A DNA stretch of 64,000 bases, taken from the NCBI GenBank assembly GCA_964383395.1, contig CAYLGV010000001.1, forward strand, positions 4,031 to 68,030, read 5' to 3'. Below the pieces are notes generated by a model, which was given only the letters and a program-made list of their open reading frames with translations, ran no database searches and was not told the DNA's origin. Of this stretch, positions 33,660 to 57,947 are shown piece by piece; the stretch's first letter is position 1; each line of letters begins with the position of its first letter. The stretch is from an uncultured Candidatus Saccharibacteria bacterium. Its GTDB lineage: Bacteria > Patescibacteriota > Saccharimonadia > Saccharimonadales > CAYLGV01. The position numbers and the translations under genes are program-made.

Positions 33660-36557
33660 TTAATGTTTTTTGGTAAGCCGACGTTGATAGTGTCCTTTGA
33701 GAAATGCCAAGTATGCGATGATTGGAATGGTTAAGAGGGCTATTAATGGACCGAAGAACCTGCCTAGCAAACCAGCGATCACTAGTGCCAAAATGATCCA
33801 AAGTGCTACTAAATGCCCTTGAGAACGTACACGTAGGTACTCGGCAGCCAGATAGTAGTATGGGAAGACCGTAACAACCAGGAAGGTGCTGGATAGCAGG
33901 CCGAAGATGAGCACCACAGAGAGGCCTTGCCAGAACGGGCTGGCAATTGCTAGTGGAATCAGTGAAACAACAGCTGTCATGCTGGTTGCAAACAGTGGTC
34001 GGAAGCGTTCTTCAAGTGCCGCTACAGTTGCATCAATAGGTGCCATTCCCTGTCGTCGTGCTTGGTTGGCATAATCTGTGAGAAGAATCGTGTTCTTAAT
34101 GCTCAAACCAACGAGTGCAAAGAAGCCAAGCATGGTGAAGAAACTAATGGCGTTATTGGTGAGCTTGAGTCCAAGCATCACACCAAAAATGCTAAATGGA
34201 ATAGCCATGAAGATGAGTAAAGGTTGCAGAAGTGAATGGAATTCGACTGCCAAGAGAAGGAAGATGACAAAGAGCAAAACTGGGAATGCCAGTGCTAATG
34301 TCTTAAACGAATCTTGATTGTCAGACTCCTGACCGATATCAAAGCTTAAGGCATCTCTTGGCAAGCCATAGCTCGTAATTTTATCGGGAGAAAATTCTTT
34401 CTTCACGGCTGTTTGAGCGAGCGTTACAAGAGTCGTTGTATCATTGCCGTCAAAGTTTGCTGTCACCGTTACGATAACCTTACCATCACTACGTTGGATA
34501 ATTGCGGCGTTAGATACGGTGGGATTTACGAAACGTGCGGTGGTTTTATTGGTACGTTTGAGTTCAGCTGTTTTCATCCAGGCTTGTAGATCATTGGCCA
34601 TCTTGGTTGCAGCCTCGCGGTTATCGGCACTTATTTGCACAGTAAAACCAGATGACGGTGGGCCAAGATCAACCTGAGCAACTGACACCTGTGCTTCCTG
34701 GAAGTCTTGATCGAAGGTTGACTGTAATTGTTTAACAAGTTCTGGTGAGGTTACATCACGTTTGCCATATGGCGTTAACTCAATATTTAGCGTTGCTGAC
34801 TGCGTACTGCCTGTATTGTAGTAGGAGGCTTCAACAAAGTTGTTGCCAAGTACCTGGCTCGTTACTTTCTCGGCTTGAGCAGTAATTGCTTCCGCGTCAT
34901 CGATAGTAGTGCCTGGCTTAAAGTTAACACTTACGGTTAGCCCGTTGGTGTCTTTGGAAGGTGGAAAAATATTGAAAACGACATCTCGAGCGATGAACAT
35001 ACCGGCGCCAACAAATAAGAGACCAACAAAAATTGCTGTGACAATTACACCGCCAAGGCGCTTACGTGAGGTGCGAGCCCAAAGCATAGGTTTTGCAATA
35101 AACGCTGCTAATTTAGCTTCAAAACCAGCGCTAAGCTCTTTTACGCCACTCTTACCAAGTTGTTTCTTACCAAGTAGCAAGAAACGGCTAAAGAATGGAA
35201 TAAAGATTAAAGCGACCAGCAAGCTGATAAGAAGTGAGGCAATCAACGTTAGTGGGATAGCTCGAATAAATGTACCGAGAATACCGCCGACAAAAAGTAG
35301 TGGTGCGAAACTAAGACAGGCGGTAAGTGTAGCAGCCAGCATAGCGCGACTAATCTTGGTGGCAGCTTCTTTGACAATTTCGCGGCGATCTTTGAGACGT
35401 TTACGGGCTGCATCGATAGCTTCCACCATAATGATGGTGTCATCGACGATGAGAGCCAAGCCCAAAATAAGGGCAAACAAGGTTATGACGTTTAGTGTAT
35501 TCCCCGAAGCGTACATAAGACCCAGTGTTGCAAGTAATACGGTGATCATTGACACCACGGTGATTACGGAGGCACGGATAGCTATAACGATTGAGCCAAC
35601 TACTAGGACAGCAATGAGCCCTTCAATGAGGACACGCTGCAATTCACCAATATTATCCTTAATAGATGGTGCAAAGCTTGCGCTGACTTTTGCCCCATAA
35701 TTCTCGAACTGAGGTTGCTTAAGCATTTCATCTATGGCTTTCTCAACATGATCATTGAGCTTTATAACATCGGTGCCCTTCTCTGTTGAAATACCGATCA
35801 GAACAGAGTTATAGAACTTGCTCTCATTTCCCTCTCGCTGGCCGTAACCATCGAAATTTTTCTGAATGGTAACAGGCTTGCCTGTCGCTGGATCAATACT
35901 TACTTCGAATGGACTCTTTACGAATACATCTTTCACTCCAGGTATATGCTGGTCTTTGAGCCATGTTGCGGCTTCTTCGGCCTTGGCTGAGGTCTGGGCG
36001 GTTGATGAGGTGCCTGTCTTGTCGTAAAACGATATCGCTTCATCAATTTGCTGAATATCTCCACCGGTCGCCCCAAAGTATGGTGCGTTAAAGCGTATTT
36101 GCGCTTGCGGTGGTATTTTGCCTGAATCCTTGACTGATTTCTCAAGGCGCGCCGCTGCACTTTGGGCGTCGGTGCCGTCTTTATACTGGATAGTAACGCT
36201 AAAGAAGTTCGGGGCGCTAGTGCTACTAACTGACTTCACATCTTTATCAGCCAGAGCAATATCGGAGATTGGCTTTGCGGCCTGTTGGTCTACTTTAATA
36301 GGGTCATTGACAAAGTAGCCGCCTGTTACGATGTTGAGAGGAATATTTACGCTTGGAAAGCCTTCTCTTCGCAAAAAGGTGGTGTAACTTAAGAAGCCAA
36401 ATAATACGATGGAAACCCATAATATAAATGTGAGTAAGGGTCTATCAAAAAACAGCAATGTTATACGCGGCAAAAACTTATCTTTGGGCTTGATGTCCTT
36501 ACTAGTTTTGGCCTTCGTCTTTGCTTTAGGTGTCTGCTTCGCTGGTTTTTTAGCCAT
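33660..36557 (-). CDS. RND-superfamily efflux transporter permease
   Basis: 965 aa with two blocks of transmembrane helices separated by large loops. No adaptor or outer-membrane partner gene is adjacent. Confidence 0.7.
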   Translation of the reverse strand: MAKKPAKQTPKAKTKAKTSKDIKPKDKFLPRITLLFFDRPLLTFILWVSIVLFGFLSYTTFLRREGFPSVNIPLNIVTGGYFVNDPIKVDQQAAKPISDIALADKDVKSVSSTSAPNFFSVTIQYKDGTDAQSAAARLEKSVKDSGKIPPQAQIRFNAPYFGATGGDIQQIDEAISFYDKTGTSSTAQTSAKAEEAATWLKDQHIPGVKDVFVKSPFEVSIDPATGKPVTIQKNFDGYGQREGNESKFYNSVLIGISTEKGTDVIKLNDHVEKAIDEMLKQPQFENYGAKVSASFAPSIKDNIGELQRVLIEGLIAVLVVGSIVIAIRASVITVVSMITVLLATLGLMYASGNTLNVITLFALILGLALIVDDTIIMVEAIDAARKRLKDRREIVKEAATKISRAMLAATLTACLSFAPLLFVGGILGTFIRAIPLTLIASLLISLLVALIFIPFFSRFLLLGKKQLGKSGVKELSAGFEAKLAAFIAKPMLWARTSRKRLGGVIVTAIFVGLLFVGAGMFIARDVVFNIFPPSKDTNGLTVSVNFKPGTTIDDAEAITAQAEKVTSQVLGNNFVEASYYNTGSTQSATLNIELTPYGKRDVTSPELVKQLQSTFDQDFQEAQVSVAQVDLGPPSSGFTVQISADNREAATKMANDLQAWMKTAELKRTNKTTARFVNPTVSNAAIIQRSDGKVIVTVTANFDGNDTTTLVTLAQTAVKKEFSPDKITSYGLPRDALSFDIGQESDNQDSFKTLALAFPVLLFVIFLLLAVEFHSLLQPLLIFMAIPFSIFGVMLGLKLTNNAISFFTMLGFFALVGLSIKNTILLTDYANQARRQGMAPIDATVAALEERFRPLFATSMTAVVSLIPLAIASPFWQGLSVVLIFGLLSSTFLVVTVFPYYYLAAEYLRVRSQGHLVALWIILALVIAGLLGRFFGPLIALLTIPIIAYLAFLKGHYQRRLTKKH

Positions 36558-36622: not shown

Positions 36623-36910
36623 TTAGGCTGTAGGTGATTCAGTTTGTTTGCCTTGCCAAAAGAGCTTCCAAAGTAGGGCTGGTGTTCGTTTCCAGCCTTC
36701 TTTTTTGGCTTCGTCTAAGGCAACCCTACCTGCAAGGCCTACGCCAATTAGGCCGATAATGATCTGGATTCCCCATACGACAGTGCGGAATTTGTCACTT
36801 GCTTGAGAGCTGGTGAGTTTACTGTTGTTGTGAGCAACATAGAGCAGTAGCTGGGCTATCGGTAGCCATGAAATAAGTACTAGTAGAATCCCGGCACGTA
36901 ATCGTTTCAT
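36623..36910 (-). CDS. Small membrane protein (95 aa)
   Basis: Two or three hydrophobic helices. Confidence 0.5.
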   Translation of the reverse strand: MKRLRAGILLVLISWLPIAQLLLYVAHNNSKLTSSQASDKFRTVVWGIQIIIGLIGVGLAGRVALDEAKKEGWKRTPALLWKLFWQGKQTESPTA

Positions 36911-36940: not shown

Positions 36941-37477
36941 TTAGGCATAATTAGGCTCAAGCAAAACGCCATTTTTTGAAACTGCCATCTCAGTACACAT
37001 ATTACTATTGAAGCAACATGGGCGACGCATACCTGAGCTTAGTTTGGAGATAGCCACCTCGACATGACGTTTACGGGTTTCGACTTGTTTGGTTGAGCGA
37101 ATCCAACGAACCCACTCCCATTGAGCCTTTGGGGTAACCTTACTCCAAGTATCTTGTGCTTTCGGGGCTTTCTTAAGCGCTTCCGCAAAATCTTTCGGAA
37201 GTTCGGGTAGTGGCCATTCTTTGGCTGGCTCAAAGTCAATACTAATAGTACTTCCTTCAACAATTCCGGCCGATTTCTGCAATTCCTTAGATACGTTAAA
37301 CCAATGGCTCCAATTTCCGTCTGGCTCAAGTGGTGCGGTGAACGGTTGGCCATTAATAGTTCCGGTTGCCATGCCCATCCCACGAGATGGTAACTTCTTG
37401 CTCACATCCGCAGGAATACGAACGACGAGCCAAGAGTCGATGGCGTATGGTTTTGCTTCGAAAGTGAGTTTACTCAT
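36941..37477 (-). CDS. DUF1905/YdeI-family protein
   Basis: LPSRGMGMATGTINGQPFTAPLEPDG is DUF1905-like. The C-terminal helical part is YdeI-like. Confidence 0.55.
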   Translation of the reverse strand: MSKLTFEAKPYAIDSWLVVRIPADVSKKLPSRGMGMATGTINGQPFTAPLEPDGNWSHWFNVSKELQKSAGIVEGSTISIDFEPAKEWPLPELPKDFAEALKKAPKAQDTWSKVTPKAQWEWVRWIRSTKQVETRKRHVEVAISKLSSGMRRPCCFNSNMCTEMAVSKNGVLLEPNYA

Positions 37478-37528
37478 GTTTATATGATAACAAGTTTAGC
37501 TCGTTATTACGTAGGCTATACTAGATGT

Positions 37529-38338
37529 ATGAATGTTCAAAATAAAGTTTTCGTTGTGACTGGTGCTGGTGGTGGCATTGGCGCCGAGTTGGTCTTAGAG
37601 CTGCTTTCAAGAGGTGCGCATGTAGCTGCAGTTGATATGCGCCAAGATAGTCTGATTGAGCTTGCAAAACGTGCTGACAACAATGTTGACCGGCTTACCA
37701 CCCATGTCGTTGATATTACTGATAAAGCTGCGGTTGCTACTTTACCCACCGTGATCAATGACAAGCATGGATCAGTAGATGGACTTATAAATAATGCGGG
37801 GATTATACAGCCATTCGTAAGAGTTAATGATATAGATTATGAAACTGTTGAACGTGTAATGCATGTGAACTTTTACGGCACACTCTATATGACAAAGGCT
37901 TTTCTGCCTGAGCTACTAAAGCGTGACGAAGCATATATTGTTAACGTTTCAAGTATGGGCGGCTTTCTGCCAGTGCCCGGTCAGTCGGTCTATGGTGCTT
38001 CAAAGGCTGCAGTTAAACTACTAACAGAAGGGTTGTACGCTGAATTGCTCGATACGTCAGTGCATGTCAGCGTGGTCTTCCCTGGTGCTACTAAAACTGA
38101 GATTACAAAGAACTCCAACGTTTCACTGCCATCATCTACTGGAGCTGATGCAGCAAAATTAGCAGCTTCAATGCTGTCTCCAGATCGTGCTGCATCAATT
38201 ATTCTTGATGGAATCGAAAAGAATAAACCACAAATATATACCGGCAAAGATTCTAAGCTGATGAACCGCTTGTATCGTTTGAGCCCGGTTCTTGCAACCA
38301 AATTTATTGCAAAACAAATGAAATCACTGCTGCCCTAA
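37529..38338 (+). CDS. Short-chain dehydrogenase/reductase
   Basis: VTGAGGGIG and YGASKAA. TATACT lies 6 nt before ATG 37529. Confidence 0.85.
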   Translation: MNVQNKVFVVTGAGGGIGAELVLELLSRGAHVAAVDMRQDSLIELAKRADNNVDRLTTHVVDITDKAAVATLPTVINDKHGSVDGLINNAGIIQPFVRVNDIDYETVERVMHVNFYGTLYMTKAFLPELLKRDEAYIVNVSSMGGFLPVPGQSVYGASKAAVKLLTEGLYAELLDTSVHVSVVFPGATKTEITKNSNVSLPSSTGADAAKLAASMLSPDRAASIILDGIEKNKPQIYTGKDSKLMNRLYRLSPVLATKFIAKQMKSLLP

Positions 38339-38342
38339 GCAG

Positions 38343-38906
38343 TTACTTATTCGATATGTTGGGTATAGCTAAGAGTTGTTTGAGCTGATCTTTGCACCAC
38401 CAACTCCATGCATCATTAGAGTCGTTCAAGGCTTGGGTGGTGAATTCTTCCCAAGAAAGCCATTTGTATGCATCTACCTCTAGAGGATTTGGCTTTGGCT
38501 GGTCAGTGGTTTTGGCGAAATATAACGGACATGCCTCATGTTCGACCACGCCTTTAAAAGGAGGAGTTTTGTACTGATACTTAGGTAACACGACGTGTGC
38601 ATCGGTGAGCGTCATACTTAGCTCGTACTCTACCCTTCTAATGATGGCGTCAGTAATAGATTCACCTGGTGCTGGGTGGCCGCAGCAACTGTTTGTCCAG
38701 GCTCCAGGCCAGACCTTTTTTGTATTTGCTCGTTGGGTTACTAATACTTTGCCGTCTGGCCGAAAAATATACACCGAAAATGCTAAATGAAGTGGTGTGT
38801 TCGCGTGATGGCTTTCAAGCTTTGGAGCAGTTCCAATAGGCTCCCAATCGTCGTTTACGAGCACAATATGCTCTGTCTCTGCTGGATCGATAGTTAGTTC
38901 ACTCAT
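38343..38906 (-). CDS. idi: Isopentenyl-diphosphate delta-isomerase, type 1
   Basis: LHLAFSVYIF...WTNSCCGHPAPGE, in the NUDIX-fold IDI-1 pattern. Confidence 0.8.
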   Translation of the reverse strand: MSELTIDPAETEHIVLVNDDWEPIGTAPKLESHHANTPLHLAFSVYIFRPDGKVLVTQRANTKKVWPGAWTNSCCGHPAPGESITDAIIRRVEYELSMTLTDAHVVLPKYQYKTPPFKGVVEHEACPLYFAKTTDQPKPNPLEVDAYKWLSWEEFTTQALNDSNDAWSWWCKDQLKQLLAIPNISNK

Positions 38907-39769
38907 GTTGAGAGACTACTAACAATTAAAATCAATGTAACCACAAAACCGGTGAATTGGTTGAGTAAAAGAAATTTGCGCCAACCTTTGTTTGCCTGTT
39001 CGGCGTGTTTGTCGGTGAGGTTAATGTATGGCCATACCATTGCTACATATCCAAGCATCGGAATACTGACCATTACGGCAGGCCAGCCACAGACCAGCAG
39101 CAATATGATAGTGGCAAGGTAGAGCACTAAACTCAGTCGTACTGTCTTAGCGGCTCCTAGATATGTACCTATTGAATGAATCTTTGCTGCCCGATCAGCT
39201 TGAATATCTTGCACAGCTCCAAACGCATGGCTTGCACAGCCCCATAAGAAAAAGGCTAACACATAGGGCCAATACACCGTTTGCCAACCTGTTATCAGCA
39301 TGGCAAAAACAAGTGGGCTTACAAAATGGAAGCTGGAATTTATAGAGTCCAGGAATGGCCGTTCCTTGAGTCGAAATGGTGGCATACTGTAGGAGATGGC
39401 ACCAAACACAATAAGCGCCAAGAACAGATTGCTTAGCAAGCTGCCGTGAACAAAAAGATACACCAGCGATACCGCGTTAAATAGAACGGTCGAAATGAGC
39501 ATGAAGCGGTGTGTGTCTGGTGGTAGTAGACCACCTTCAATACTGTTCTTGCGCGGGTTACGCAAGTCAGACTCATAATCGTACACATCGTTTACTACAT
39601 ACACCAGAAAGTTATAGGGGATCAAAAAATAAAATGTCGCCAGATAAAAATAAACATTCAACGAGCCACCAGTAGCTAAGTAGCCTGCCGCAAACGGAAA
39701 CGCGGTATTGATCCATGAAATCGGTCGAGACGAAACCAGTAATTTTGTCAGTTTATCGCTTGTTTTCAC
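38903..39769 (-). CDS. UbiA-family prenyltransferase, lycopene-elongase-like by context
   Basis: NDVYDYESD and a second Asp-rich motif QDIQAD, with 8-9 transmembrane helices. It sits directly after the split cyclase genes. Confidence 0.6.
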   Translation of the reverse strand: MKTSDKLTKLLVSSRPISWINTAFPFAAGYLATGGSLNVYFYLATFYFLIPYNFLVYVVNDVYDYESDLRNPRKNSIEGGLLPPDTHRFMLISTVLFNAVSLVYLFVHGSLLSNLFLALIVFGAISYSMPPFRLKERPFLDSINSSFHFVSPLVFAMLITGWQTVYWPYVLAFFLWGCASHAFGAVQDIQADRAAKIHSIGTYLGAAKTVRLSLVLYLATIILLLVCGWPAVMVSIPMLGYVAMVWPYINLTDKHAEQANKGWRKFLLLNQFTGFVVTLILIVSSLST

Positions 39770-40061
39770 AGTATTCCCAGATTAACACAACCAACACGAC
39801 GGAAGCGACGGCATACGCAAAATCTTCTATGGGTGCCCTGCCAATATACACGCCAAGAATGCGCGCAGTGTCGTAACCAACAATGCCAGCCGCAATAATA
39901 AGTGAGTCAAACAGGACGGTAAGTAACAGAATGGCTGAGAGGGTGAACCAGAACGGCTTTAAGATGTGATGTTTGTGCTTGGCTGGTATACGACGAAGCA
40001 ATATAAGACTTGCCAAGATAGTTCCAAGCAGTACTAAACCGTTCAATACCAGATAATTCAT
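39753..40061 (-). CDS. Lycopene-cyclase-domain small membrane subunit (CrtYd/CrtYf-like)
   Basis: 102 aa with 3 transmembrane segments. One of a pair of small subunits after crtI, with an ATGA overlap. Confidence 0.55.
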   Translation of the reverse strand: MNYLVLNGLVLLGTILASLILLRRIPAKHKHHILKPFWFTLSAILLLTVLFDSLIIAAGIVGYDTARILGVYIGRAPIEDFAYAVASVVLVVLIWEYCENKR

Positions 40062-40369
40062 GTTCTTTCCACCTGTCGCTTAATCATGAGATATACAAGT
40101 AGACTGGTGTAATTTAGGAGCGTCAAAAAGAATAGTTCTTCTAGCGGAAATTGTCCTATGCGTATGCCAAGCAGAAAGGTTGTTTGGCCGATAAAAAATA
40201 TGTTAGACAGTATGCCAGCAATGTCCCACAATACGAAGAAACCGATAGTGATGAGCAAAATCAATGCAGTACGTTTCGCGTGCTTAAAGAATGCCAGCCT
40301 AAGCCGATAATCAATAAATGCCAAGCCGCCAAGCGAAACAAGCAAAGCGATCATGTACGCACCACTCAT
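40058..40369 (-). CDS. Lycopene-cyclase-domain small membrane subunit (CrtYc/CrtYe-like)
   Basis: The start is set at the ATG overlapping the crtI stop (ATGA). About 103 aa with 3 transmembrane segments. Confidence 0.55.
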   Translation of the reverse strand: MSGAYMIALLVSLGGLAFIDYRLRLAFFKHAKRTALILLITIGFFVLWDIAGILSNIFFIGQTTFLLGIRIGQFPLEELFFLTLLNYTSLLVYLMIKRQVERT

Positions 40370-41892
40370 AATTTCACCTGTTTGATTGCCTGGGGTGCGC
40401 CCGCCGACCAATCTTTGACCATGTGTTTATACACTAATTGCGCACTAATAATACACATTGGTACACCAATCCCTGGTTGTGTGCCGCCGCCCACATAATA
40501 GAGATTCTTTACTTTCTTGCTTTTAACGCCAGGTCGTAAGATGGCAGTTTGTCTAAGGGTATGACTCATTCCAAGAGCAGTGTTTTGCCAGGCATTGAAA
40601 GCGTCTCCAAAATACTGAGGTGTGCGGATCTCTTTAACCACGATGCGAGAGCGTAGGTCATCAATCCCCGACATGGTTTCGAGCTGTTCAAGATAATGCT
40701 CAGCGTATGAGCTAATAGCTTTTGCATCTTTGTCTGCTCCAGCTGGTAATGGTACCAATACAAAGATATTCTCGTGCCCTTTTGGTGCGGTAGCTGCATC
40801 CGTAGCAGTTGTTTTACTTACGTATATCGATGCTTTCTCGGGCCACACCTTTGATTTATAGATGTCATCAAAGTTTTGTTTCCAAGCTGATACAAAAAAT
40901 AAATTGTGGTGCTCAAGCTCAGGTAACTCACCCTTAACACCAAGGTACATAAGCAGCGCCGATGGTCCGGCCTGCCGCTTACTCCAATAGTCTGAAGAAT
41001 AAGACCTATCCTGGGGCTTTAACAATGATTGCTCGGTGAAGTGCAGATCAGCGTTCGAGATAACTACATCTGCATGAATAGTTTTACCGTCAACAGTTAT
41101 CCCAATTGCTTTCCCCTTTTCTGTGATTATATTTTCTACAGGGCTATTGTAGTGATATTTCACGTCCAGTTCTTTGCCCAATGAAACCAATGCCTCTGTG
41201 ACAGCGTGCATACCGTGCTTAGCTGGGTAAAACACTCCTTCTTGAAAATCTAGATAGCTCATAAGTTGATAAAGCGCTGGAGTTGTAAATGGTGAGGCAC
41301 CCAAGAAAACACTGGGATATTCAAGAATTTGTTGCAGTTCTTGTCGCTTGAAATGCCTAGCAACATAGCTGTGTAATGTTTGACTAAACATAGGTAGTAG
41401 CGATGGAGACGCTTTTATAACTTCACGATTAGCGAGGTCTACGTAGCGTTTAAATGGATTGTAGAGGAAATATGTAAGAGCAGCATCGTAGTGGCGTCGG
41501 CCACGCTTTATATATGAGCGAAGTTTCTCGGCCGCACCCGGTTCAAGTGTTTCAAATGTCTTTAGGTTTTTTTCTAAATCACCCGTGATTGTAACGGGCT
41601 CAATCGTTTCAAAAAATACTTTATAAGCTGGATCGAGACGAATGAGCTCAAAGTAGTCCCCTATTTGCTTATCAAATAATTTGAAGTAACTCGAAAAAAC
41701 ATCACTCATGAGATACCATGAAGGACCACTGTCAAAAGTATAACCGTCTGTTTTTAGTTGTCCCATACGACCACCAGGCTGGGCATTTTTTTCGTATATC
41801 GAAACATCCATACCAGCTTTCGCAAGCATATTTGCGAGAGCTAAACCTCCTGCTCCTGCGCCAATAATAATTGCTGTTTGCTTATGAGCCAT
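40366..41892 (-). CDS. crtI: Phytoene desaturase
   Basis: IIIGAGAGGLALA...GGRMG...DSGPSW. 508 aa, FAD-dependent CrtI family. Confidence 0.85.
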   Translation of the reverse strand: MAHKQTAIIIGAGAGGLALANMLAKAGMDVSIYEKNAQPGGRMGQLKTDGYTFDSGPSWYLMSDVFSSYFKLFDKQIGDYFELIRLDPAYKVFFETIEPVTITGDLEKNLKTFETLEPGAAEKLRSYIKRGRRHYDAALTYFLYNPFKRYVDLANREVIKASPSLLPMFSQTLHSYVARHFKRQELQQILEYPSVFLGASPFTTPALYQLMSYLDFQEGVFYPAKHGMHAVTEALVSLGKELDVKYHYNSPVENIITEKGKAIGITVDGKTIHADVVISNADLHFTEQSLLKPQDRSYSSDYWSKRQAGPSALLMYLGVKGELPELEHHNLFFVSAWKQNFDDIYKSKVWPEKASIYVSKTTATDAATAPKGHENIFVLVPLPAGADKDAKAISSYAEHYLEQLETMSGIDDLRSRIVVKEIRTPQYFGDAFNAWQNTALGMSHTLRQTAILRPGVKSKKVKNLYYVGGGTQPGIGVPMCIISAQLVYKHMVKDWSAGAPQAIKQVKL

Positions 41893-42733
41893 ATGGTAGT
41901 ACTTTGGCTCTAATAAGTAATGAGGCTTTTTTGTAGGAGCTTACCCGCACGCGCTCAGAGGCAATACTGCTGGCTGGTTTCTTGGCTAGTTCATGAAGAA
42001 GTGCTTCATAGTATTGATACGCTAGTCGTGTTGCCCGTCGTGCTGACTTCGGTAATTTTTCAATATACGTTTGGGCATTGTTAAAATCTTGCTGGATGTC
42101 TGCAAGTATTTGGTCTTTCAATTTATCGTTAAACGTTTCAAAACTCCCGTATGGAAAATAGTATCGATTCCGCACCACGTAATCGTCATGAATATCCCGC
42201 AAGAAGTTTACTTTCTGAAAAGCAGCGCCCAAAGCTTTGGCCCCATCACTCAGAGCATGGTATTGCTCTTCGTCTCCCTGAACAAACACACGCAAGCACA
42301 TTAACCCAACCACTTCGGCTGATCCATATATGTAATCATCGTATGTTTTCTGAGTGAACCTAACTGGCTTTAGGTCCATACGCATACTTACAAAAAATGG
42401 CTCGATAAGGTCTTTCTTGATCTGGTAAGCAACAGCAGTTTCAATAAAAGCATGAATGATAATATTGGCACTAAAACCACGTTTTAGCGCAGCATAGACT
42501 TCTAGTTCGAAGTCATCTAGTACCTTTTTGGCATCGGGGCCTTTATAGGTGTCAACAACTTCGTCAGTAACTCGTACTAATCCGTAAATGTTATAGATAT
42601 GTTGACGGATGTCAGTTCCGAACAATGTAATAGCTGAACTAAAAGATGAAGAGAAGGTTTGGGTGACAACCTTACTGGCTTGTCGTGCGCTAATCGTGTA
42701 ATCGTGAAGTGACTGATTGTTGGTTTGGTCCAC
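41882..42733 (-). CDS. crtB: Phytoene synthase (squalene/phytoene synthase family)
   Basis: YGLVRVTDEVVD, YIYGSAEVVG and LGAAFQKVNFLRDIHDD. GTG start. Confidence 0.8.
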   Translation of the reverse strand: MDQTNNQSLHDYTISARQASKVVTQTFSSSFSSAITLFGTDIRQHIYNIYGLVRVTDEVVDTYKGPDAKKVLDDFELEVYAALKRGFSANIIIHAFIETAVAYQIKKDLIEPFFVSMRMDLKPVRFTQKTYDDYIYGSAEVVGLMCLRVFVQGDEEQYHALSDGAKALGAAFQKVNFLRDIHDDYVVRNRYYFPYGSFETFNDKLKDQILADIQQDFNNAQTYIEKLPKSARRATRLAYQYYEALLHELAKKPASSIASERVRVSSYKKASLLIRAKVLPYGS

Positions 42734-42880
42734 TTGCTAGTTGTCCTTTCCTACTTCGTAAACTATAGCATAACCTCTGATGAAACGTGGATTTGAGTAC
42801 GCAATTGTGCAGGTTATTGACAAATGCATTCCTGAGGATGACAATTAAGTTATATCAAGGGTGGATCAATAGGAGGCTTT

Positions 42881-43279
42881 ATGGCTACACCAAACAATTC
42901 CCCGTCCGGCTGGGTCGGTTGGGCGTATTTTGCTAGTTTCATGATGATTCTGGCAGGCATTTTACAATCTATTGCGGGTCTTTCAGCAATATTTAGGAAG
43001 GGCTTTTTCGTGGTAACGGAAAATCAGCTCCTAGTTTTTAACTTCACAACTTGGGGTTGGGTTCACCTAATACTAGGTATTGTGATCTTTATGGCTGGTC
43101 TTGAGCTGCTGCGCGGTGCTATGTGGGCACGTGTTGTTGCAGTTATCTTGGCTGTTTTGAGCTTTGTTGCAAACATGGCTTTCTTCAATGCTTACCCATG
43201 GTGGTCATTGGTAGTCATGGTGATCGATGTGTTGGTTATCTACGCGCTTACTGTTAAAGGTGGTGAGTTAAAAGCTTAA
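42881..43279 (+). CDS. Small integral membrane protein (132 aa)
   Basis: AGGAGG ribosome-binding site and four hydrophobic helices. Confidence 0.65.
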   Translation: MATPNNSPSGWVGWAYFASFMMILAGILQSIAGLSAIFRKGFFVVTENQLLVFNFTTWGWVHLILGIVIFMAGLELLRGAMWARVVAVILAVLSFVANMAFFNAYPWWSLVVMVIDVLVIYALTVKGGELKA

Positions 43280-46587: not shown

Positions 46588-47055
46588 ATGGAAATTATAC
46601 TTCCCGATCGTGAATCTATAGAGCTACTGCACGAAGCAGTTATGATGTTTTCAGGCGGTCGACCAGGTATTCACTCAGAGAACTTAATTCTTAGCGCCAT
46701 CGGTCGTCCATTAACACACGCTGATTATAATGAAGATTTTACCCTAGATGAAATATGCGCAGTGCTAATAGATGCAATCGCGAGAAACCATGGCTATAAT
46801 GACGGGAACAAACGTACAGCTCTAATGACGGCGTTTTATACGTACCGTATGAATGGCGTACATTTTAAAGCAACTGAAGCCATGAACGTTGACTTTGATG
46901 AGCTTGTCATGTGGGTCGTAAATGAAAAACCCACAGTAAAGGAGATTACAGCTCGACTAAAAGAATTGCGTGTCACCCATGAGGGTTACCAAGAGAGCTG
47001 GGGACCTATACTTGCTGCGTTTAGAAAAGCAATGAGCAAAACAAAACGTGATTAA
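46588..47055 (+). CDS. doc: Fic/Doc family toxin (death-on-curing type)
   Basis: NHGYNDGNKRTAL matches the Doc variant of the Fic motif HxFx(D/N)(A/G)NKR. Confidence 0.7.
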   Translation: MEIILPDRESIELLHEAVMMFSGGRPGIHSENLILSAIGRPLTHADYNEDFTLDEICAVLIDAIARNHGYNDGNKRTALMTAFYTYRMNGVHFKATEAMNVDFDELVMWVVNEKPTVKEITARLKELRVTHEGYQESWGPILAAFRKAMSKTKRD

Positions 47056-47069
47056 CTATTGAGACGACT

Positions 47070-47606
47070 TTATTCCAGGTCGAGCTGGACGTTTTGCCAT
47101 ATGAGCCCATCATTATCGGGTTCGGGCTCACCGACTGGAGTGAAGCCCTGATCTGCCAAGAGCTTGGCTGCGGCAGTGTTGTCTGCCAGATGACGTGAAA
47201 AGACTTGTAAGCAATCGTCCTCTCGTAAGTAGTCAATGACTGCTTTCATTGAAGAGCTACCAATACCCTTGCCACGCGCTTGTGGATCGCCAATCATGAT
47301 ATGTATACCTGGAGCTTCCACAGAGTTCACCTCTTCCAGATCTACCCAAACAGCTCCCACGACTTTATCGTCATATTGTATAGCCCAGTTCAGTTGCTTG
47401 GGGTTATTTACAAAGCCCTGAACACGTTTTTTCTCGCCTTCTAACGTTGGTGCTTTGTTTTTGTCTTCAGTTACGCCCATCAATCTTAGTGTATTGCGGC
47501 CAATGTCACCTTCGAGCCAGGCTACACTCAGTGGCGCGTCACGCTCAACATCTGGTTCGATGAGATGTACTTTTGGATTCGTGGTCTCAAGTTGAGTGGC
47601 TTTCAT
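47070..47606 (-). CDS. GNAT family N-acetyltransferase
   Basis: ARGKGIGSS acetyl-CoA loop. 178 aa. Confidence 0.7.
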   Translation of the reverse strand: MKATQLETTNPKVHLIEPDVERDAPLSVAWLEGDIGRNTLRLMGVTEDKNKAPTLEGEKKRVQGFVNNPKQLNWAIQYDDKVVGAVWVDLEEVNSVEAPGIHIMIGDPQARGKGIGSSSMKAVIDYLREDDCLQVFSRHLADNTAAAKLLADQGFTPVGEPEPDNDGLIWQNVQLDLE

Positions 47607-47718
47607 GATGGCAGTATAGCAAAGTATTTTGGGCTAATAATTCCAAAAGCAATCGATGCGACGATAAACAGTCTTATGGCTAGCTTCTGCATTATTCAAC
47701 TACACCAAAAAACACTCT

Positions 47719-48516
47719 CTAGATCTGCAAGGCTTTTGGTCTGCGAATTGCGAAGTTGTCGTAGCGACTTACGTCAAAATCTGACCATGTTTGCGCTTCG
47801 ATTGGCAAGGTCTTGTCTCGAATTTGTATTTCATGTCCCATAACACCTCCATATGATTCATCGTCACGATAGGAGTCCCATATTTCAATCAAACCGTCAT
47901 CGGCTTCAACAACCATGGCTACATGCTTGGATTTTCCATTTTTACTCATTGCAATTAGATCACCTGGTTGTGTCTCGCATAAATGTGGTACGGCAACTGA
48001 AGCGGCATCGTTACACAAGCGAGCAACATTTACTTGAGAAGCCAGATCCTTGTTGAATGTCTTGGCTACCCATTCAAGTGGTACCTGGTGTGGTAAGTCT
48101 TCAAGCTCCCCTGCAGTTAGCTCATGTTCGACTCTCCAGCTTTCTTTTGTTGAGGCCTGAACTATCGCTGGCTTGGGCACGTACAGAGACTTAGCATAGC
48201 TTTCCTGTCCCTGCGACTCTAGAGCACGTGTGAATAGGTTAAATACGAACCCAGAACAATCAATACCAATCTGATTACGATACAGAAAATTTCTTGCGCT
48301 ATTCACGCTTGTTACATTTACTTCTTCTGAAATTTCAGCACAATTTGCAAGAATTCTGATGACCTCGCCCTGCATATCTTCTGGTGTACCTTTAGCTCCT
48401 TTGAAACCATCACCGTAATCAGGTGTGATTATCCAGTACACAGGCATAACCTCAACGTCATTTACAGTAAGCTCAAACTGGTCGATTCCCGTCCTCAAAA
48501 CTTCAGGAGTTAACAT
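47719..48516 (-). CDS. NlpC/P60-like (papain-fold) protein without a signal peptide
   Basis: IDCSGFVFNLF gives a candidate Cys and KHVAMVV a candidate His. The N-terminal domain is unknown. Confidence 0.4.
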   Translation of the reverse strand: MLTPEVLRTGIDQFELTVNDVEVMPVYWIITPDYGDGFKGAKGTPEDMQGEVIRILANCAEISEEVNVTSVNSARNFLYRNQIGIDCSGFVFNLFTRALESQGQESYAKSLYVPKPAIVQASTKESWRVEHELTAGELEDLPHQVPLEWVAKTFNKDLASQVNVARLCNDAASVAVPHLCETQPGDLIAMSKNGKSKHVAMVVEADDGLIEIWDSYRDDESYGGVMGHEIQIRDKTLPIEAQTWSDFDVSRYDNFAIRRPKALQI

Positions 48517-48583
48517 AAAGCAAAAATAACATTTATATAGCTATATGTCAATAATCCGCTCTCTGTAGAAGCAAGTAAAATGG

Positions 48584-48973
48584 TTATTTTTCAGGCCACG
48601 GATATGGCATAAGTTCCGAGATAGGTATTTGTTTAATGCCTTTATCTTCTTGAATAATTACGAGCGTATCAATACCTGACTTTAAGCTACTTTCGTAGAT
48701 GAGTTGTTTGCAGATGTGGCAGTTTGGTCCAGTGATGGCGACGATATCTTTTTCGCCATGGATGGCTGCGTTAGCAAGCGCCGTGGCTTCGGAGTGCATG
48801 GTAAGCGTGAGTGTGTCAGATTTATAACTGATACCTTCGTAGATGTTTCCTGCCTTAGTAAGCACAGTTACCGCATAGCCTTCATTTGCAATCGGGTAGG
48901 TATTTACGAGTGCTTGCTCTGCTTTTGTAAGGAGTTGTTCGCATAATTCGGTAGATAGTGGTTCTGGCTTCAT
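48584..48973 (-). CDS. Cytidine/deoxycytidylate deaminase-fold protein
   Basis: HSEATAL (H/CAE motif) and PNCHICKQ (PCxxC-type). The C-terminal ELMPYPW resembles the Cdd ELLPxAF. Confidence 0.6.
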   Translation of the reverse strand: MKPEPLSTELCEQLLTKAEQALVNTYPIANEGYAVTVLTKAGNIYEGISYKSDTLTLTMHSEATALANAAIHGEKDIVAITGPNCHICKQLIYESSLKSGIDTLVIIQEDKGIKQIPISELMPYPWPEK

Positions 48974-48987
48974 TGCATTCCAATTCT

Positions 48988-49323
48988 TTAGTGTTCGGCA
49001 GCTTTTTTGCCAGATAATTCGCGATTCTTTAGAAATTCAGCTGACTGTTCAAGGTTATTACTGGCAACATCGGATAGTTTTAAGTCATAGTATTCTGCAA
49101 GCACAGCTGCGTAGTACAAGACGTCACCTAGTCTTTTCTTCACGATTTCAAGGTCTTCTGGAGTGGCCTTGCCATCCTTGTCTCGGATAACTTTGTTAAG
49201 CTCATTGCTCAATATGCCAGCAGCACCATTAAGACCCATAGTTCGGTGTGCTAATGCAACAGCCGTTTTTTGGGTAATGGCGACACTTTTAAGCGCTTGT
49301 TGCTGAAACTCATCTATATCCAT
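48988..49323 (-). CDS. MazG-like all-alpha nucleotide pyrophosphohydrolase
   Basis: 111 aa, with LGDVLYYAAVLAEYYDL typical of small MazG-family proteins. Confidence 0.5.
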   Translation of the reverse strand: MDIDEFQQQALKSVAITQKTAVALAHRTMGLNGAAGILSNELNKVIRDKDGKATPEDLEIVKKRLGDVLYYAAVLAEYYDLKLSDVASNNLEQSAEFLKNRELSGKKAAEH

Positions 49324-49348
49324 AGCCTTATCATATCAAATGAAGTAA

Positions 49349-49786
49349 CTATTCTGTTGGTCCAGTGAGTGCTGCAACTACTTTGGCGAGTGATGGCTCA
49401 TTGGCTGGATCGAATTCATCACAGTGATCACGGATTACAAGTGTCTCACTACCCATATTCTCGTACCAGTAAAGAGTATTTTCTGTAGGAATGGATGTTT
49501 CTGTACCATCTTCAAGAAATACATTACTTGTTCCACCTGTCTTTAGGTCAACTATAGCAAGGCGCCCAAAGCCACTCTCAACTGTCAGTTCTAAAGCATG
49601 ACCACCTATGAGCACACAAGGCTCGGCGGTATCACGAATTTCTAGTAAAACCTCATCACCTACTGTTATGCCATCACGATTAAGAACATGTATTGAATAG
49701 TCGACCGAAGAGTCTTCGCCCTTTTCATGGATGCCTTCAACGATTGTTTCGCCTGGATACAAAAAGTTATCAATCATGGATTTCAA
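49349..49786 (-). CDS. Hypothetical protein (145 aa)
   Basis: ORF overlapping the upstream gene by 17 nt, which suggests operon membership. Confidence 0.5.
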   Translation of the reverse strand: MKSMIDNFLYPGETIVEGIHEKGEDSSVDYSIHVLNRDGITVGDEVLLEIRDTAEPCVLIGGHALELTVESGFGRLAIVDLKTGGTSNVFLEDGTETSIPTENTLYWYENMGSETLVIRDHCDEFDPANEPSLAKVVAALTGPTE

Positions 49787-50519
49787 AAATTGGCACCTCT
49801 TCGCCAGTAATAGTTACGCTGCCATTTAGAATTTCATCTTGTGTACGAGAGTATCGAGTACCAGCTGGGTAGCCACCGGCCACGATCTGGGTGTAGATGA
49901 CATCGTCTTCAAGATTTCCCGTGCTCTCGTAACCCTGCGCACGAACTATAACTTCATCAACCATATAACAGGTGCCTTCAACATGATCAATTTGGCGACC
50001 GACTAATGGATTGTTGGACAGATTTACCTCATAACCTGGGTTGGCAGTCACACGGAGGGCGTAATTAAATGGGTCGCTAAAACGGAACTCTTGAACACCG
50101 GCATGCTCATGGGGTGGAACGTGCGTATGCGCTTCAATGGTTGGTCCACCTGCGCTGAAAATATCATGCACGTGATCGTTAGACGGTACGATCAAAGTGA
50201 CTTCGACAAGGTCCATGAGTTTAGGTAGACGTAAGCCTTTAGCAAACTCTGTTGGGTTTGCGTTTGGGTTTTCAATAAAGTGAATAATCTTTTCAGGATC
50301 TTCGGTCTGCCAGTACGCTATAGTTGGTGTTCGGAATGCCCCAACATCTGGTGATGCCAAGGTATCAAATTCTGAGCTTGAATCGTTCCGTACATCCCAA
50401 CCGATAGAGTTATAGAAGCCATGAATACGCTCGGCGACTTCTGGGTCGCGAGGTACCATCAGCTCTGCCATCACTGTATTGTGATACGGACGGTAAGTCA
50501 TAAGTAAATAATACCACAA
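49770..50519 (-). CDS. Hypothetical protein with a His-rich cluster (AHTHVPPHEHAG)
   Basis: Long ORF. It may bind metal, but I recognised no family. Confidence 0.5.
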   Translation of the reverse strand: MWYYLLMTYRPYHNTVMAELMVPRDPEVAERIHGFYNSIGWDVRNDSSSEFDTLASPDVGAFRTPTIAYWQTEDPEKIIHFIENPNANPTEFAKGLRLPKLMDLVEVTLIVPSNDHVHDIFSAGGPTIEAHTHVPPHEHAGVQEFRFSDPFNYALRVTANPGYEVNLSNNPLVGRQIDHVEGTCYMVDEVIVRAQGYESTGNLEDDVIYTQIVAGGYPAGTRYSRTQDEILNGSVTITGEEVPIFEIHD

Positions 50520-50546
50520 ATAATGTATTTTGTAAAATCATATAGT

Positions 50547-50795
50547 TTAGTTTGCTACACGCAGAACATCGAGATCAACTTCAAGATCGGCGAGCTTCTT
50601 TTCGATCGCCTTTTTGGCATCTTCGATAGCGTGATTGTAAATTTCTGGACCTAGATGACCGGCAACAATATCGATTATCTCTTGTGCTGCAATCATGCCA
50701 AACTCCGAATTGCCTTGTTCATCTACTCGGGCAATAATCTCATCTCTGCACTGACGACTCGCCTCTTCGTTTGTAATGTCCCATTTGCGTATCAT
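50547..50795 (-). CDS. DUF2164-like small protein
   Basis: 82 aa with pattern ...FGMIAAQEIIDIVAGHLGPEIYNHAIEDAK. Confidence 0.45.
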   Translation of the reverse strand: MIRKWDITNEEASRQCRDEIIARVDEQGNSEFGMIAAQEIIDIVAGHLGPEIYNHAIEDAKKAIEKKLADLEVDLDVLRVAN

Positions 50796-50822
50796 GCCTT
50801 TATCATAGCAAACAGATGTAGA

Positions 50823-51080
50823 TTATCTTCGATCAAGCCACTGTTTTTTCAAGAGTGAAACAGTAAGAGTGGAGAGTAAAAAACCAATGACTGGCACCAA
50901 TGCGTTAATCCACGGGCTGATATGTACAACGAAGTGTAAATAGAACGCGACAACTAAGTATGTGAGCAGCATAATGCTTATTCGTCTGGTCCAACTTGTT
51001 TCCCATGCCTTATCGCCCTCAACACGTTTATTACGTGCCTCTAGCTCTGCAACACGCTTCTCTAGTTCGTTAACGTTCAT
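50823..51080 (-). CDS. Small membrane protein with an N-terminal coiled-coil
   Basis: MNVNELEKRVAELEARNKRVE followed by two transmembrane helices. Confidence 0.5.
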   Translation of the reverse strand: MNVNELEKRVAELEARNKRVEGDKAWETSWTRRISIMLLTYLVVAFYLHFVVHISPWINALVPVIGFLLSTLTVSLLKKQWLDRR

Positions 51081-51092
51081 ACCGAAAGTATA

Positions 51093-51884
51093 TCAAACTG
51101 TAGAAGTAGCAAATGCTTCATCGAGGGCCAGCAGTTCATCCCAGCTTTCAATCGCTCCGCCTTCAAGAATACGTGACAAGTTACCCAAGTATTTGATCAC
51201 AGGAACTTTATGAGTAGCTAAGGCATTCTCAATATCTCGTTCTGGGTATCGGTAGTTCAGCAAGAACTCAATCTGTGAGTTTTGAAATGGCACTAAACCT
51301 TCTATGAGGTTATCTGTGTTGTCATTGGCGGCCTGCATTTCTCTGAATAACTGATGAGAAAGCCAAGGGCCTAAAGGTGTGAATAGTCTTCCGACATCTG
51401 CACTGGCAACTGCGTGGGCTATGAGCTCAGCTCGTTTGGTCGGGTAGGTCTGCTCCACTGCCTTTTGCACAATAGTGCCATCTTGGAAGCGAGGTGTTGT
51501 GCCAATCACGGCCAAGCGACCAGTTGCGATAGCGACTTGTGATATGCCTGGCAGTGCTCGAAGCTCTGATTCTAGCCAATCAGCACTTTCGGCTTCATCA
51601 ACGCCCGGGGCACGGTCAAAGGTCTTAACGACATCGTGGGCTGCCATAGCAGATACGCCCAGCAGAAATTCTGCTCTGGTGAGCCCTAAGGTATCCCTTA
51701 ACACCGAGAAGTCTTCGCAGGCCATACGGGTATGTACGCCATTATGATAATAGTATGGCGAGATGGCAGATTCTTCCATTGCACCGTAGTTGGTATCGAT
51801 CTCGTGTAAGGCACGAGACACGATCAACCTGCCGTCACCAGCAAGCTCGTGATACCAAGGATGTTCTTCAAGTATTTGACGCAT
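51093..51884 (-). CDS. Possible HD-domain phosphohydrolase
   Basis: H...HD pattern (NGVHTRM ... AMAAHDVV). The evidence is weak. Confidence 0.35.
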   Translation of the reverse strand: MRQILEEHPWYHELAGDGRLIVSRALHEIDTNYGAMEESAISPYYYHNGVHTRMACEDFSVLRDTLGLTRAEFLLGVSAMAAHDVVKTFDRAPGVDEAESADWLESELRALPGISQVAIATGRLAVIGTTPRFQDGTIVQKAVEQTYPTKRAELIAHAVASADVGRLFTPLGPWLSHQLFREMQAANDNTDNLIEGLVPFQNSQIEFLLNYRYPERDIENALATHKVPVIKYLGNLSRILEGGAIESWDELLALDEAFATSTV

Positions 51885-51946
51885 AAGTGTTCCTTTCTAT
51901 TAGTTACACCTGCATTGTATCTACGTTATTCCAACTATAGAAATTG

Positions 51947-51981
51947 TTGTGCAAAAAATGCACAGAACGTATAATATTGTC
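51947..51981 (+). promoter_or_regulatory. Promoter placed for a leaderless transcript of the TrmB-like regulator
   Basis: TTGTGC, 17-nt spacer, TATAAT (51970-51975), then 6 nt to ATG 51982. Confidence 0.5.
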
Positions 51982-53474: not shown

Positions 53475-53520
53475 GAGACAAAAGATAGCACTTCTGGTGC
53501 ACTAAGTAAAAAGCTAACGT

Positions 53521-54231: not shown

Positions 54232-54261
54232 TAGTATATTTTGTCACCAATATATGAATTG

Positions 54262-54762: not shown

Positions 54763-54847
54763 AGGACAATAATAGCAAACTGGCTAGCGTTATTTGACTT
54801 ATCTATACGTTCTGTAAGATTAACGAATTAATACGAACCAAAAGCAA

Positions 54848-55489: not shown

Positions 55490-55530
55490 TTAATTAACGG
55501 TAACATAAAAAGTAAAATCTGTAAACTTAA

Positions 55531-56301: not shown

Positions 56302-56330
56302 TTCGTTAAGGACTAATTGATAAGCTGTTG

Positions 56331-57920: not shown

Positions 57921-57947
57921 AGGGCGATTATAGCAAACATGAGTTGG

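Follow-up and report, generated by a model that had tools for sequence, protein, structure and literature searches.

A six-gene operon for a predicted cyclic C50 carotenoid in an uncultured Saccharibacterium

The DNA analysed here (hereafter the window) is a stretch of 64,000 nucleotides (nt) from contig CAYLGV010000001.1 of an uncultured Candidatus Saccharibacteria bacterium. Its minus strand carries six carotenoid genes within 42733..38343: crtB, crtI, two genes for lycopene-cyclase-domain subunits of about 100 amino acids (aa), a gene of the UbiA prenyltransferase superfamily and idi (Table 1). The initial annotation of this DNA had given this order and an overlap at every junction (11, 4, 4, 17 and 4 nt); its coordinates proved exact for all six open reading frames (ORFs), and the overlaps can be read directly from the sequence. 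The crtB/crtI junction is ATGGCTCATAA (11 nt shared) and that between the second cyclase gene and the prenyltransferase gene is GTGAAAACAAGCGATAA (17 nt shared). The three other junctions (crtI with the first cyclase gene, the two cyclase genes with each other, the prenyltransferase gene with idi) each consist of ATGA with a 4-nt overlap. Such overlaps of stop and start codons indicate one polycistronic message.

Homologous loci in other assemblies carry numbers with the prefix L. All six relatives for which gene calls exist (L085, L087, L088, L091, L092 and L093) show the 11-nt crtB/crtI overlap. The overlap between the second cyclase gene and the prenyltransferase gene measures 17 nt in L085, L087, L091 and L092 and is shorter in L088 (11 nt) and L093 (4 nt). 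This recurrence supports the chosen start codons, including the GTG of the prenyltransferase gene. For the first cyclase gene, the mechanical ORF list opens with a TTG further upstream (40411). Independent gene calls, both in relatives and on a Logan contig of identical sequence, yield products of 102-103 aa, and on that ground the ATG at 40369 was chosen. A Shine-Dalgarno-like stretch, AGGAAAGGA, lies 5' of the GTG start of crtB. The promoter scan gave 13 sigma-70-like matches over the whole region scanned against 13.3 expected, and none on the minus strand inside the intergenic region upstream of crtB (42734..42880). Since the matches are at chance level, no promoter is claimed there. No regulator gene adjoining this region was identified. 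At the distal end, the convergent stop codons of idi and of a gene for a short-chain dehydrogenase (SDR) are 4 nt apart, and the terminator scan found a short hairpin across this gap; it is possibly a weak bidirectional terminator.

Table 1. Features of the carotenoid locus and its surroundings in the window
Feature	Position	Strand	Remarks
crtB, phytoene synthase (SQS_PSY)	41882-42733	minus	283 aa, GTG start
crtI, phytoene desaturase family	40366-41892	minus	508 aa, ATG start
Cyclase subunit 1 (crtYe-like)	40058-40369	minus	103 aa, ATG start, 3 predicted transmembrane segments
Cyclase subunit 2 (crtYf-like)	39753-40061	minus	102 aa, ATG start, 3 predicted transmembrane segments
crtEb-like lycopene elongase, UbiA-superfamily prenyltransferase	38903-39769	minus	288 aa, GTG start
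idi, type-1 isopentenyl-diphosphate isomerase	38343-38906	minus	187 aa, ATG start
Presumed operon promoter region, intergenic, between crtB and divergent DUF7144 gene	42734..42880	minus	position only
Hairpin ACTGCT-N6-AGCAGT, putative terminator	38326..38343	both	6-bp stem
Short-chain dehydrogenase	37484..38338	plus	284 aa, convergent with operon; Pfam adh_short 180 bits
DUF1905/OmdA protein	36941-37477	minus	Pfam OmdA, DUF1905
95-aa ORF	36623-36910	minus	same-strand downstream neighbour
RND/MMPL-type transporter	33660-36557	minus	965 aa; Pfam ACR_tran, MMPL
DUF7144 membrane protein, four transmembrane segments	42881-43279	plus	divergent from crtB; 76% identical copy at L093 12241-12642

The first two enzymes of the operon would supply lycopene. 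The crtB product matches Pfam SQS_PSY with 143.7 bits (cutoff 26), reaches no NCBIfam equivalog cutoff, contains the two Asp-rich motifs DEVVD and DIHDD, and is 39-51% identical to the products of the crtB genes in the same position in 70 loci. CrtI scores 496 bits on TIGR02734 crtI_fam (cutoff 238) and has an N-terminal GAGAGG motif for the binding of flavin adenine dinucleotide (FAD); its identity is 51% to Saccharibacterial, 43% to actinobacterial and 41% to haloarchaeal (CrtI/D) homologues. On the NCBIfam model 'CrtID bifunctional phytoene desaturase/3,4-desaturase', the Saccharibacterial CrtIs score 569 (window) and 503 bits and actinobacterial ones 476-477 bits. The proteins compared were those of the window, L003 (5899-7386) and L083 (1481-2998); all Saccharibacterial and actinobacterial scores lie under the cutoff of 640, and the Halarchaeum protein reaches 754 bits. 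These values hint at a history or specificity of CrtI somewhat unlike that of the rest of the cluster.

The prenyltransferase was expected from the initial annotation to be a carotenoid-type elongase and not a member of a MenA, UbiA or other non-carotenoid clade, and the model scans agree with this. It scores 362.6 bits on the 'prenyltransferase' equivalog NF009608 (cutoff 217), on which elongases from homologous clusters used as controls reach 477 (Clavibacter), 457 (Aurantimicrobium), 470 (Arthrobacter) and 386 bits (a Saccharibacterial metagenome-assembled genome, MAG). Halarchaeum LyeJ, whose gene has crtI and an annotated cruF as its neighbours, obtains 397 bits on NF009516 and does not reach NF009608 at E < 1e-30. 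On this LyeJ-type model the window protein obtains 127 bits, below the cutoff of 205. Quinone and chlorophyll prenyltransferases were ruled out, with 29-39 bits on the UbiA, MenA/MqnP, ChlG and HPT models against cutoffs of 180-420. The Asp-rich motifs N60-D61-x-x-D64-x-x-x-D68 and D188-x-x-x-D192 do not vary among 14 aligned members of the family. The protein is 51% identical to a Saccharibacterial homologue, 47% to an actinobacterial one and 32% to haloarchaeal LyeJ (over 71% of the query); across the cluster elongases the range is 47-55%. Membership in the CrtEb-type family, and not in the LyeJ-type or MenA/UbiA families, is thus supported by these comparisons.

These scores also bear on the acyclic C50 pathway of bacterioruberin synthesis (lyeJ-crtD-cruF). 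The one paper found to link Patescibacteria with a lycopene elongase is that of Haro-Moreno et al. (2023) on Lake Baikal, in which hidden Markov models (HMMs) for lyeJ, crtD and cruF gave hits in Patescibacteria, one of them a Saccharibacteria MAG. The hits were read as bacterioruberin synthesis, and the genes were unclustered (PMC9948471). A bacterioruberin pathway in the window would be in line with that report and with the higher score of its CrtI than of actinobacterial CrtIs on the haloarchaeal 'CrtID' model, although this score stays under the cutoff. The haloarchaeal and Arthrobacter crtI/D-lyeJ-cruF clusters likewise take a C50 route with a UbiA-type lycopene elongase and a CrtI-family desaturase. 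Unlike them, the window has two intact cyclase subunits, an elongase of the CrtEb type and no cruF: tblastn with Halarchaeum CruF gave a best E of 2.6 in the window and no match in 81 loci (L001-L081). The bacterioruberin pathway was therefore ruled out on the lack of cruF in the window and these loci and on the fit of the elongase, and the probability left to it is very small.

Five of the six products pass the curated Pfam or NCBIfam cutoffs. The sixth, cyclase subunit 1, scores 52.5 bits on TIGR03462 (cutoff 39.4) and 24.8 bits on Pfam Lycopene_cyc, below the cutoff of 27; subunit 2 has 50 and 40.3 bits on the same two models. Among columns conserved in at least 85% of sequences, subunit 1 retains 16 of 18 in an alignment of 70 orthologues, including D20, W48-D49 and P75-x-E77-E78, and subunit 2 retains 10 of 10, including F51-D52 and P77-x-E79-D80. 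Both genes lie directly upstream of the elongase gene, as they do in the syntenic loci.

The lycopene-cyclase domain models do not tell C40 from C50 cyclases, and this leaves room for a plain C40 pathway in which the subunits form a CrtYc/CrtYd-type beta-cyclase yielding beta-carotene, for example as a retinal precursor, and the UbiA protein prenylates something else. The actinobacterial CrtYc/CrtYd lycopene beta-cyclase is built like the predicted enzyme of the window, from two small membrane subunits with one lycopene-cyclase domain each and a PxE(E/D) motif, and there are rhodopsin-bearing Saccharibacteria whose source of retinal is not known (PMC9296517). The CrtYc/Yd clusters, however, have no adjacent elongase, whereas the prenyltransferase gene directly follows the cyclase genes in every locus examined and overlaps the second of them in the window; this synteny disfavours CrtYc/Yd membership. 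The prenyltransferase passes the CrtEb-type equivalog model, the window contains neither blh nor a 7-transmembrane protein of rhodopsin size (about 250 aa), and the flanks of the Saccharibacterial loci contain no rhodopsin, blh or further carotenoid genes. What these flanks hold is unrelated (MPG glycosylase, PAP2-kinase, ApbE, ferric reductase, a CarS-like protein, LD-carboxypeptidase). A C40 product is accordingly considered unlikely.

The last gene encodes a Nudix-type isomerase scoring 219.5 bits on NF002995 (cutoff 127) and 140.8 bits on TIGR02150 (cutoff 105.8). Its translation shows the motifs NSCCGHP and EHE, which by analogy with E. coli IDI would contain the catalytic Cys and Glu.

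The five core genes are a recurrent unit. A search with the prenyltransferase through one genome per GTDB species gave 588 relatives, of which the best 80 were kept as loci. The best match is an unclassified 'bacterium' MAG (L002, 65% identity); six MAGs bear the labels Saccharibacteria, Saccharimonadaceae or Saccharimonas (47-53%); the remaining loci are one labelled Chloroflexi (L022) and those of Micrococcales and a few other Actinomycetota (47-55%). According to tblastn with the six window proteins, the order crtB-crtI-cyclase 1-cyclase 2-ubiA on one strand occurs in 67 of the 67 loci long enough for all five genes. Departures from this order are L064, whose crtI-crtB pair is divergent, and three loci (two of Georgenia, one of Ornithinimicrobium) in which the second cyclase falls below threshold. 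In L064 (RZYE01000126.1, an Actinomycetota MAG, 2087-5895), a reversed crtI-crtB pair with 27-28% identity to the window proteins precedes the cyclase-cyclase-elongase part, the front half of the cluster being swapped for a different desaturase/synthase lineage. In actinobacterial loci a distance of 1-1.5 kb separates crtB from an idi upstream of it, and the interval holds the gene of a polyprenyl synthase of about 355 aa (crtE). The recurrence of one order in dozens of independent genomes argues against a chance arrangement.

Metagenomic proteins extend this distribution. Among 123 listed proteins (the 120 best representatives of clusters at 90% identity and three cluster members), at least 93 are clearly nearer to the Saccharibacterial clan, and two are clearly actinobacterial. 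This indicates an operon widespread within part of the Saccharibacteria rather than a one-off.

The likeness to actinobacterial crtYe/Yf/Eb clusters for C50 carotenoids, already drawn in the initial annotation, holds for gene order, protein families and synteny alike. In Corynebacterium glutamicum, crtB, crtI, crtEb and crtYeYf suffice for decaprenoxanthin and the elongase uses DMPP; the crtEb deletion accumulates lycopene and the crtY deletion flavuxanthin (PMC3598387). Its operon, crtE-cg0722-crtB-crtI-crtYe-crtYf-crtEb, compared here by its published description (PMC3598387), shares with the window the core order, one transcript, the families and dimethylallyl diphosphate (DMAPP) as co-substrate. 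The window differs in having no crtE or cg0722-like gene, in its appended and coupled idi and in its Saccharibacterial host. Microbacteriaceae clusters with the order idi/crtE-B-I-cyclase-cyclase-elongase have been assigned to C50 pigments of the decaprenoxanthin or C.p.450 type, with elongases 56-64% identical to those of C. glutamicum, Dietzia, Leifsonia xyli and Agromyces mediolanus (PMC6669644). For Aurantimicrobium and Rhodoluna, both in the locus set, crtYe/Yf plus crtEb have been described (PMC7734400, PMC12422013). Such clusters of Microbacteriaceae and other Micrococcales (Agromyces mediolanus lctABC, Leifsonia xyli, Marisediminicola antarctica, Aurantimicrobium minutum; PMC6669644, PMC7734400) have the core order of the window and an associated idi, and provide its nearest homologues outside the Saccharibacteria (UbiA 47-55%, CrtI 39-45%, CrtB 39-46%, IDI 39-52%). 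Their idi lies upstream of crtE, often divergently, whereas that of the window comes last and overlaps the elongase gene; the window also differs from them in having no crtE and in sequences that form a separate clan.

It is therefore probable that the window holds a functional operon whose product is a cyclic C50 carotenoid of the same type as decaprenoxanthin, sarcinaxanthin or C.p.450, in a Saccharibacterium that draws geranylgeranyl diphosphate (GGPP) from elsewhere. All six products are members of the expected families and keep their catalytic or invariant residues, and they are orthologous to, and strictly syntenic with, Micrococcales clusters annotated as C50 in the literature. By homology to the genetically dissected C. 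glutamicum pathway, CrtB would condense two GGPP into phytoene, which CrtI would convert into lycopene. The CrtEb-type UbiA protein would then add a DMAPP-derived C5 unit onto each end of lycopene, giving an acyclic C50 intermediate, and the two small membrane subunits would act as a heterodimeric C50 cyclase that closes the end rings. IDI, translationally coupled to the elongase, would balance isopentenyl diphosphate (IPP) against DMAPP, the co-substrate of the elongase. The C50 nature of the product, its ring type and the role of idi are predictions of this scheme; a cyclic rather than an acyclic hydrated C50 carotenoid is predicted because the cyclase subunits are present.

The initial annotation had remarked that no GGPP synthase gene (crtE) adjoins the operon, and this extends to the whole 64-kb window, where tblastn with three actinobacterial CrtE queries gave a best E of 0.8. 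Upstream of crtB there is only the intergenic stretch and then the divergent DUF7144 gene. By tblastn, crtE stands directly upstream of crtB in L002, L003 and L009. Close relatives found by exact-protein look-ups form a graded series, given here with the identity of their UbiA to that of the window: L087 (72%) has a cluster headed by crtE (crtE-crtB-I-cyclase-cyclase-ubiA); L088 (67%), L093 (71%) and L092 (78%) have the five core genes only; L091 (83%), L085 (84%) and the window itself have these five genes and an idi that overlaps the elongase gene. In this series idi is thus confined to the window, L085 and L091 and is missing from L092, L093, L087 and L088. From this distribution crtE is common in the clusters of the clan and was probably part of its ancestral layout, as in L002, L003, L009 and L087; the window belongs to a sub-lineage whose clusters lack crtE and whose youngest branch gained idi.

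Since neither the operon nor the window contains a GGPP synthase, GGPP must be supplied by the host or by a polyprenyl synthase encoded in another part of the genome; a plausible candidate is a housekeeping prenyl-diphosphate synthase. No genes of the methylerythritol phosphate (MEP) or mevalonate pathways were found among the 46 window ORFs scanned with Pfam, which covered the small ORFs in part, and IPP may be host-derived. In a cell supplied in this way, an isomerase beside a DMAPP-consuming elongase would be biochemically sensible. A more far-reaching and rather doubtful proposal ties the C50 pathway of this sub-lineage to the metabolism of the host: a cell without crtE and perhaps, like other Saccharimonadia, without any C5 pathway would take up host-made IPP and/or GGPP, the newly acquired, elongase-coupled idi would make DMAPP, and the pigment would stiffen or photoprotect a membrane of scavenged lipids and/or give retinal for rhodopsins and heliorhodopsins by asymmetric cleavage. 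Aurantimicrobium minutum has the same cluster without blh and still makes retinal, for which an asymmetric-cleavage route has been hypothesised (PMC7734400).

The surprise expressed in the initial annotation presupposed that the contig is not actinobacterial, and the contig is indeed Saccharibacterial judging by its protein identities and composition. The 94,443-bp contig of the prenyltransferase also encodes the glutamyl-tRNA synthetase GltX (18990-20408), whose best named relatives, at 72-77% identity, are proteins of a Patescibacteria group bacterium, Candidatus Saccharimonadales and Candidatus Saccharibacteria. The guanine-plus-cytosine (GC) content stays within 0.42-0.51 throughout the window. 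In the operon it is 0.42-0.46, with 0.37-0.49 at third codon positions (GC3), and for 44 other window genes the values are 0.46 +/- 0.02 and 0.41 +/- 0.05. A mis-binned or chimeric contig with a truly actinobacterial operon was considered in view of one syntenic locus (L022) whose Chloroflexi label shows that the bins of this family are not always labelled reliably. This explanation is extremely improbable. The operon lies in the middle of a window of uniform composition, on the same contig as the Saccharibacterial GltX; orthologues of its flanking genes (DEAD helicase, RND, RadC, SPOUT, MacB/FtsX) recur in four independent assemblies; and an independent Logan assembly reproduces crtI..idi-SDR-DUF1905 exactly. 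On these grounds an actinobacterial or mis-binned contig was ruled out. Exact-protein look-ups at both window edges returned only short Logan contigs lying within the window. As for L022 itself (SEAL01000015.1, labelled Chloroflexi bacterium PMG_070), it is a 16.7-kb contig with a GC of 0.47, and its CrtI and UbiA fall inside the Saccharibacterial clan beside a Saccharimonadaceae MAG, which points either to the mis-binning of a Saccharibacterial contig or to one more transfer.

The initial annotation had proposed that the cluster was acquired horizontally, for example from an actinobacterial partner, and had suggested phylogenies of CrtI, CrtB and the prenyltransferase against actinobacterial and haloarchaeal homologues. 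In trees built on Kimura-corrected distances from gap-trimmed MAFFT alignments, the Saccharibacterial sequences (the window, L002, Saccharibacteria-labelled MAGs and L022) form a clan of their own, apart from all Actinomycetota, with bootstrap values of 95 for UbiA, 100 for CrtI and 87 for CrtB. The root was set with Halarchaeum LyeJ, CrtI/D and CrtB, and the actinobacterial sequences came from the best 80 loci of the genome search. In the rooted trees the Saccharibacterial and actinobacterial groups are reciprocally monophyletic for CrtI (56/60 and 59/60) and for CrtB (49/60 and 45/60). The operon proteins are 62-84% identical to those of the closest sequenced relative, L085 (GCA_964394925.1), and the flanking DEAD helicase, RND transporter and DUF1905 protein 62-86%. 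Against L085 synonymous sites are saturated in most genes, the nonsynonymous rate (dN) is 0.10-0.34, and the ratio of nonsynonymous to synonymous rates (dN/dS), where computable and then in the manner of an upper bound, is at most 0.17. All six genes are intact in both genomes, with equal or nearly equal lengths. The operon is under purifying selection.

A recent acquisition of an actinobacterial C50 cluster from a host would have in its favour that the nearest non-Saccharibacterial homologues of the core genes are those of Micrococcales and relatives, in the same order, and that Actinobacteria are known as hosts of Saccharibacteria (PMC9296517). Against it stand the identity of only 39-55% to the actinobacterial proteins, the separate clan and the at least 93 metagenomic protein clusters that fall within it. 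Further, the GC and GC3 of the operon fit the background, whereas the actinobacterial loci with the homologous cluster have a GC of 0.46-0.76 and possible donors mostly 0.55-0.76; and the operon has diverged from its counterpart in L085 to the same degree as the housekeeping genes beside it. With clade structure, composition and co-divergence against it, recent transfer from an actinobacterium was ruled out as highly improbable, and because of the separate deep clan, the native GC and codon usage and a divergence in step with the flanks, transfer from a present-day host is not supported. Of the proposed acquisition from an actinobacterial partner, only an old link to the Micrococcales-type cluster stands. 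Since this cluster is the nearest outside relative, an ancient transfer between phyla, in one direction or the other, is likely. The data indicate that the cluster is an old, selected possession of a Saccharibacterial clade, related at depth to that of Micrococcales.

Several points weigh against a working C50 operon of this origin. The Saccharibacterial clusters are known from genes alone, so that the product is predicted, and their link to characterised CrtEb, CrtYe/Yf and CrtYc/Yd enzymes is transitive, through Micrococcales orthologues and published identities. The trees were made by neighbour-joining and not by maximum likelihood, and the rooted UbiA tree is poorly resolved (Saccharibacterial clade 28/60, actinobacterial 38/60). 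Without GGPP the pathway would be idle, and the synthase is absent from the operon and the 64-kb window. A search with the CrtE of L087 gave many homologues, 17 of them on contigs size-matched to prenyltransferase-bearing contigs; among the top 120 matches listed, no CrtE-clade protein lay on a contig with the length of that of the window (94,443 bp) or of L085 (96,856 bp), a weak negative that leaves other contigs unseen. Surveys also suggest that Saccharimonadia have no C5 (IPP) synthesis (PMC9166423).

The missing synthase, together with the crtE kept in the clusters of more distant relatives, would also suit a decaying or idle remnant in a lineage that has lost crtE and no longer makes the pigment. 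Yet the five core genes are intact in six lineages without crtE (the window, L085, L091, L092, L093 and L088), dN/dS is well under 1 and catalytic residues are kept; the later gain of a coupled idi by the sub-lineage suggests continued use. A remnant is thus improbable, and an operon in use for a cyclic C50 carotenoid is preferred.

The genes around the operon are partly conserved. In L092 (4325-5152, 73%) and L093 (8959-9759, 68%) an orthologue of the SDR gene lies convergently right after the elongase gene, and L085 and L091 have none; in the window the SDR gene and the elongase gene are separated by idi. The SDR could possibly modify the carotenoid, for instance at hydroxyl groups. The DUF1905/OmdA gene, the ORF of about 95 aa and the RND/MMPL gene also follow the cluster as a set in L085 (11441-15288), L091 (9485-13030; the small ORF not called) and L092 (5184-9009). 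In the crt operon of C. glutamicum, cg0722 is given as a 'putative membrane protein' (PMC3598387). The DUF7144 copy of L093 lies about 3.4 kb past the end of the cluster, in a neighbourhood that is otherwise different. The product of cg0722 is probably a membrane protein of the MMPL type. In a further Saccharibacteria MAG (L042, 2395-3568) two genes come after that of the elongase, first a CarS-like one (CDP-archaeol synthase family, PF01864, 100.7 bits) and then one for a CDP-alcohol phosphatidyltransferase. The former encodes an activation enzyme of the isoprenoid-lipid type, in a bacterium supposed to scavenge its lipids.

Elsewhere in the window, trpB (PALP, 404 aa), trpA (Trp_syntA) and a class-I Trp/Tyr-type tRNA synthetase gene lie in a row on the plus strand (3975-6925), and on the matching Logan contig (L090) an ORF of the Trp-repressor family is called upstream. 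The set has the look of an indole salvage module with tryptophan synthase only, within a reduced genome. On the minus strand (12969-14635), a Y-family DNA polymerase gene (IMS, IMS_C and DUF4113, 439 aa) is preceded by one for a 114-aa Peptidase_S24 protein, a umuD/umuC-like translesion pair that would fit a UV-exposed life alongside the carotenoid operon. A long same-strand run of genes on the minus strand (47000-59400) encodes, at scattered points, a patatin-like phospholipase, an acyltransferase of the lysophospholipid type and a peptidase S51; many of its genes have no Pfam match (for example 49770-50519, 51093-51884, 53521-54231 and 56331-57197).

In the open-access literature no Saccharibacterial operon of the compact form crtB-I-Ye-Yf-Eb(-idi) was found described. 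Jaffe et al. (2022), who do not discuss carotenoid genes of Saccharibacteria, reported rhodopsin-bearing members of the group without blh and proposed actinobacterial hosts as the source of their retinal (PMC9296517). The operon is a known kind of system in an unusual host, with the missing crtE and the idi fused into the operon as its local peculiarities. The surprise of the initial annotation is tempered by the broad distribution of the operon among environmental Saccharibacteria and by a single earlier report (PMC9948471).

Saccharibacteria and other lineages within the candidate phyla radiation (CPR) have usually been pictured as host-reliant, with almost no lipid or isoprenoid biosynthesis, and a selected pigment operon of six enzymes contrasts with this picture. 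Some environmental lineages appear still to invest in a costly membrane pigment, which would point to light or oxidative exposure, or to adaptation of the membrane to cold, as selection acting on an epibiont. The missing GGPP synthase and the probably missing IPP supply raise the question of which isoprenoid intermediates pass from host to epibiont, and the operon bears on the source of retinal for Saccharibacterial rhodopsins. The clan also offers divergent, low-GC CrtEb and CrtYe/Yf enzymes for the engineering of C50 carotenoids.

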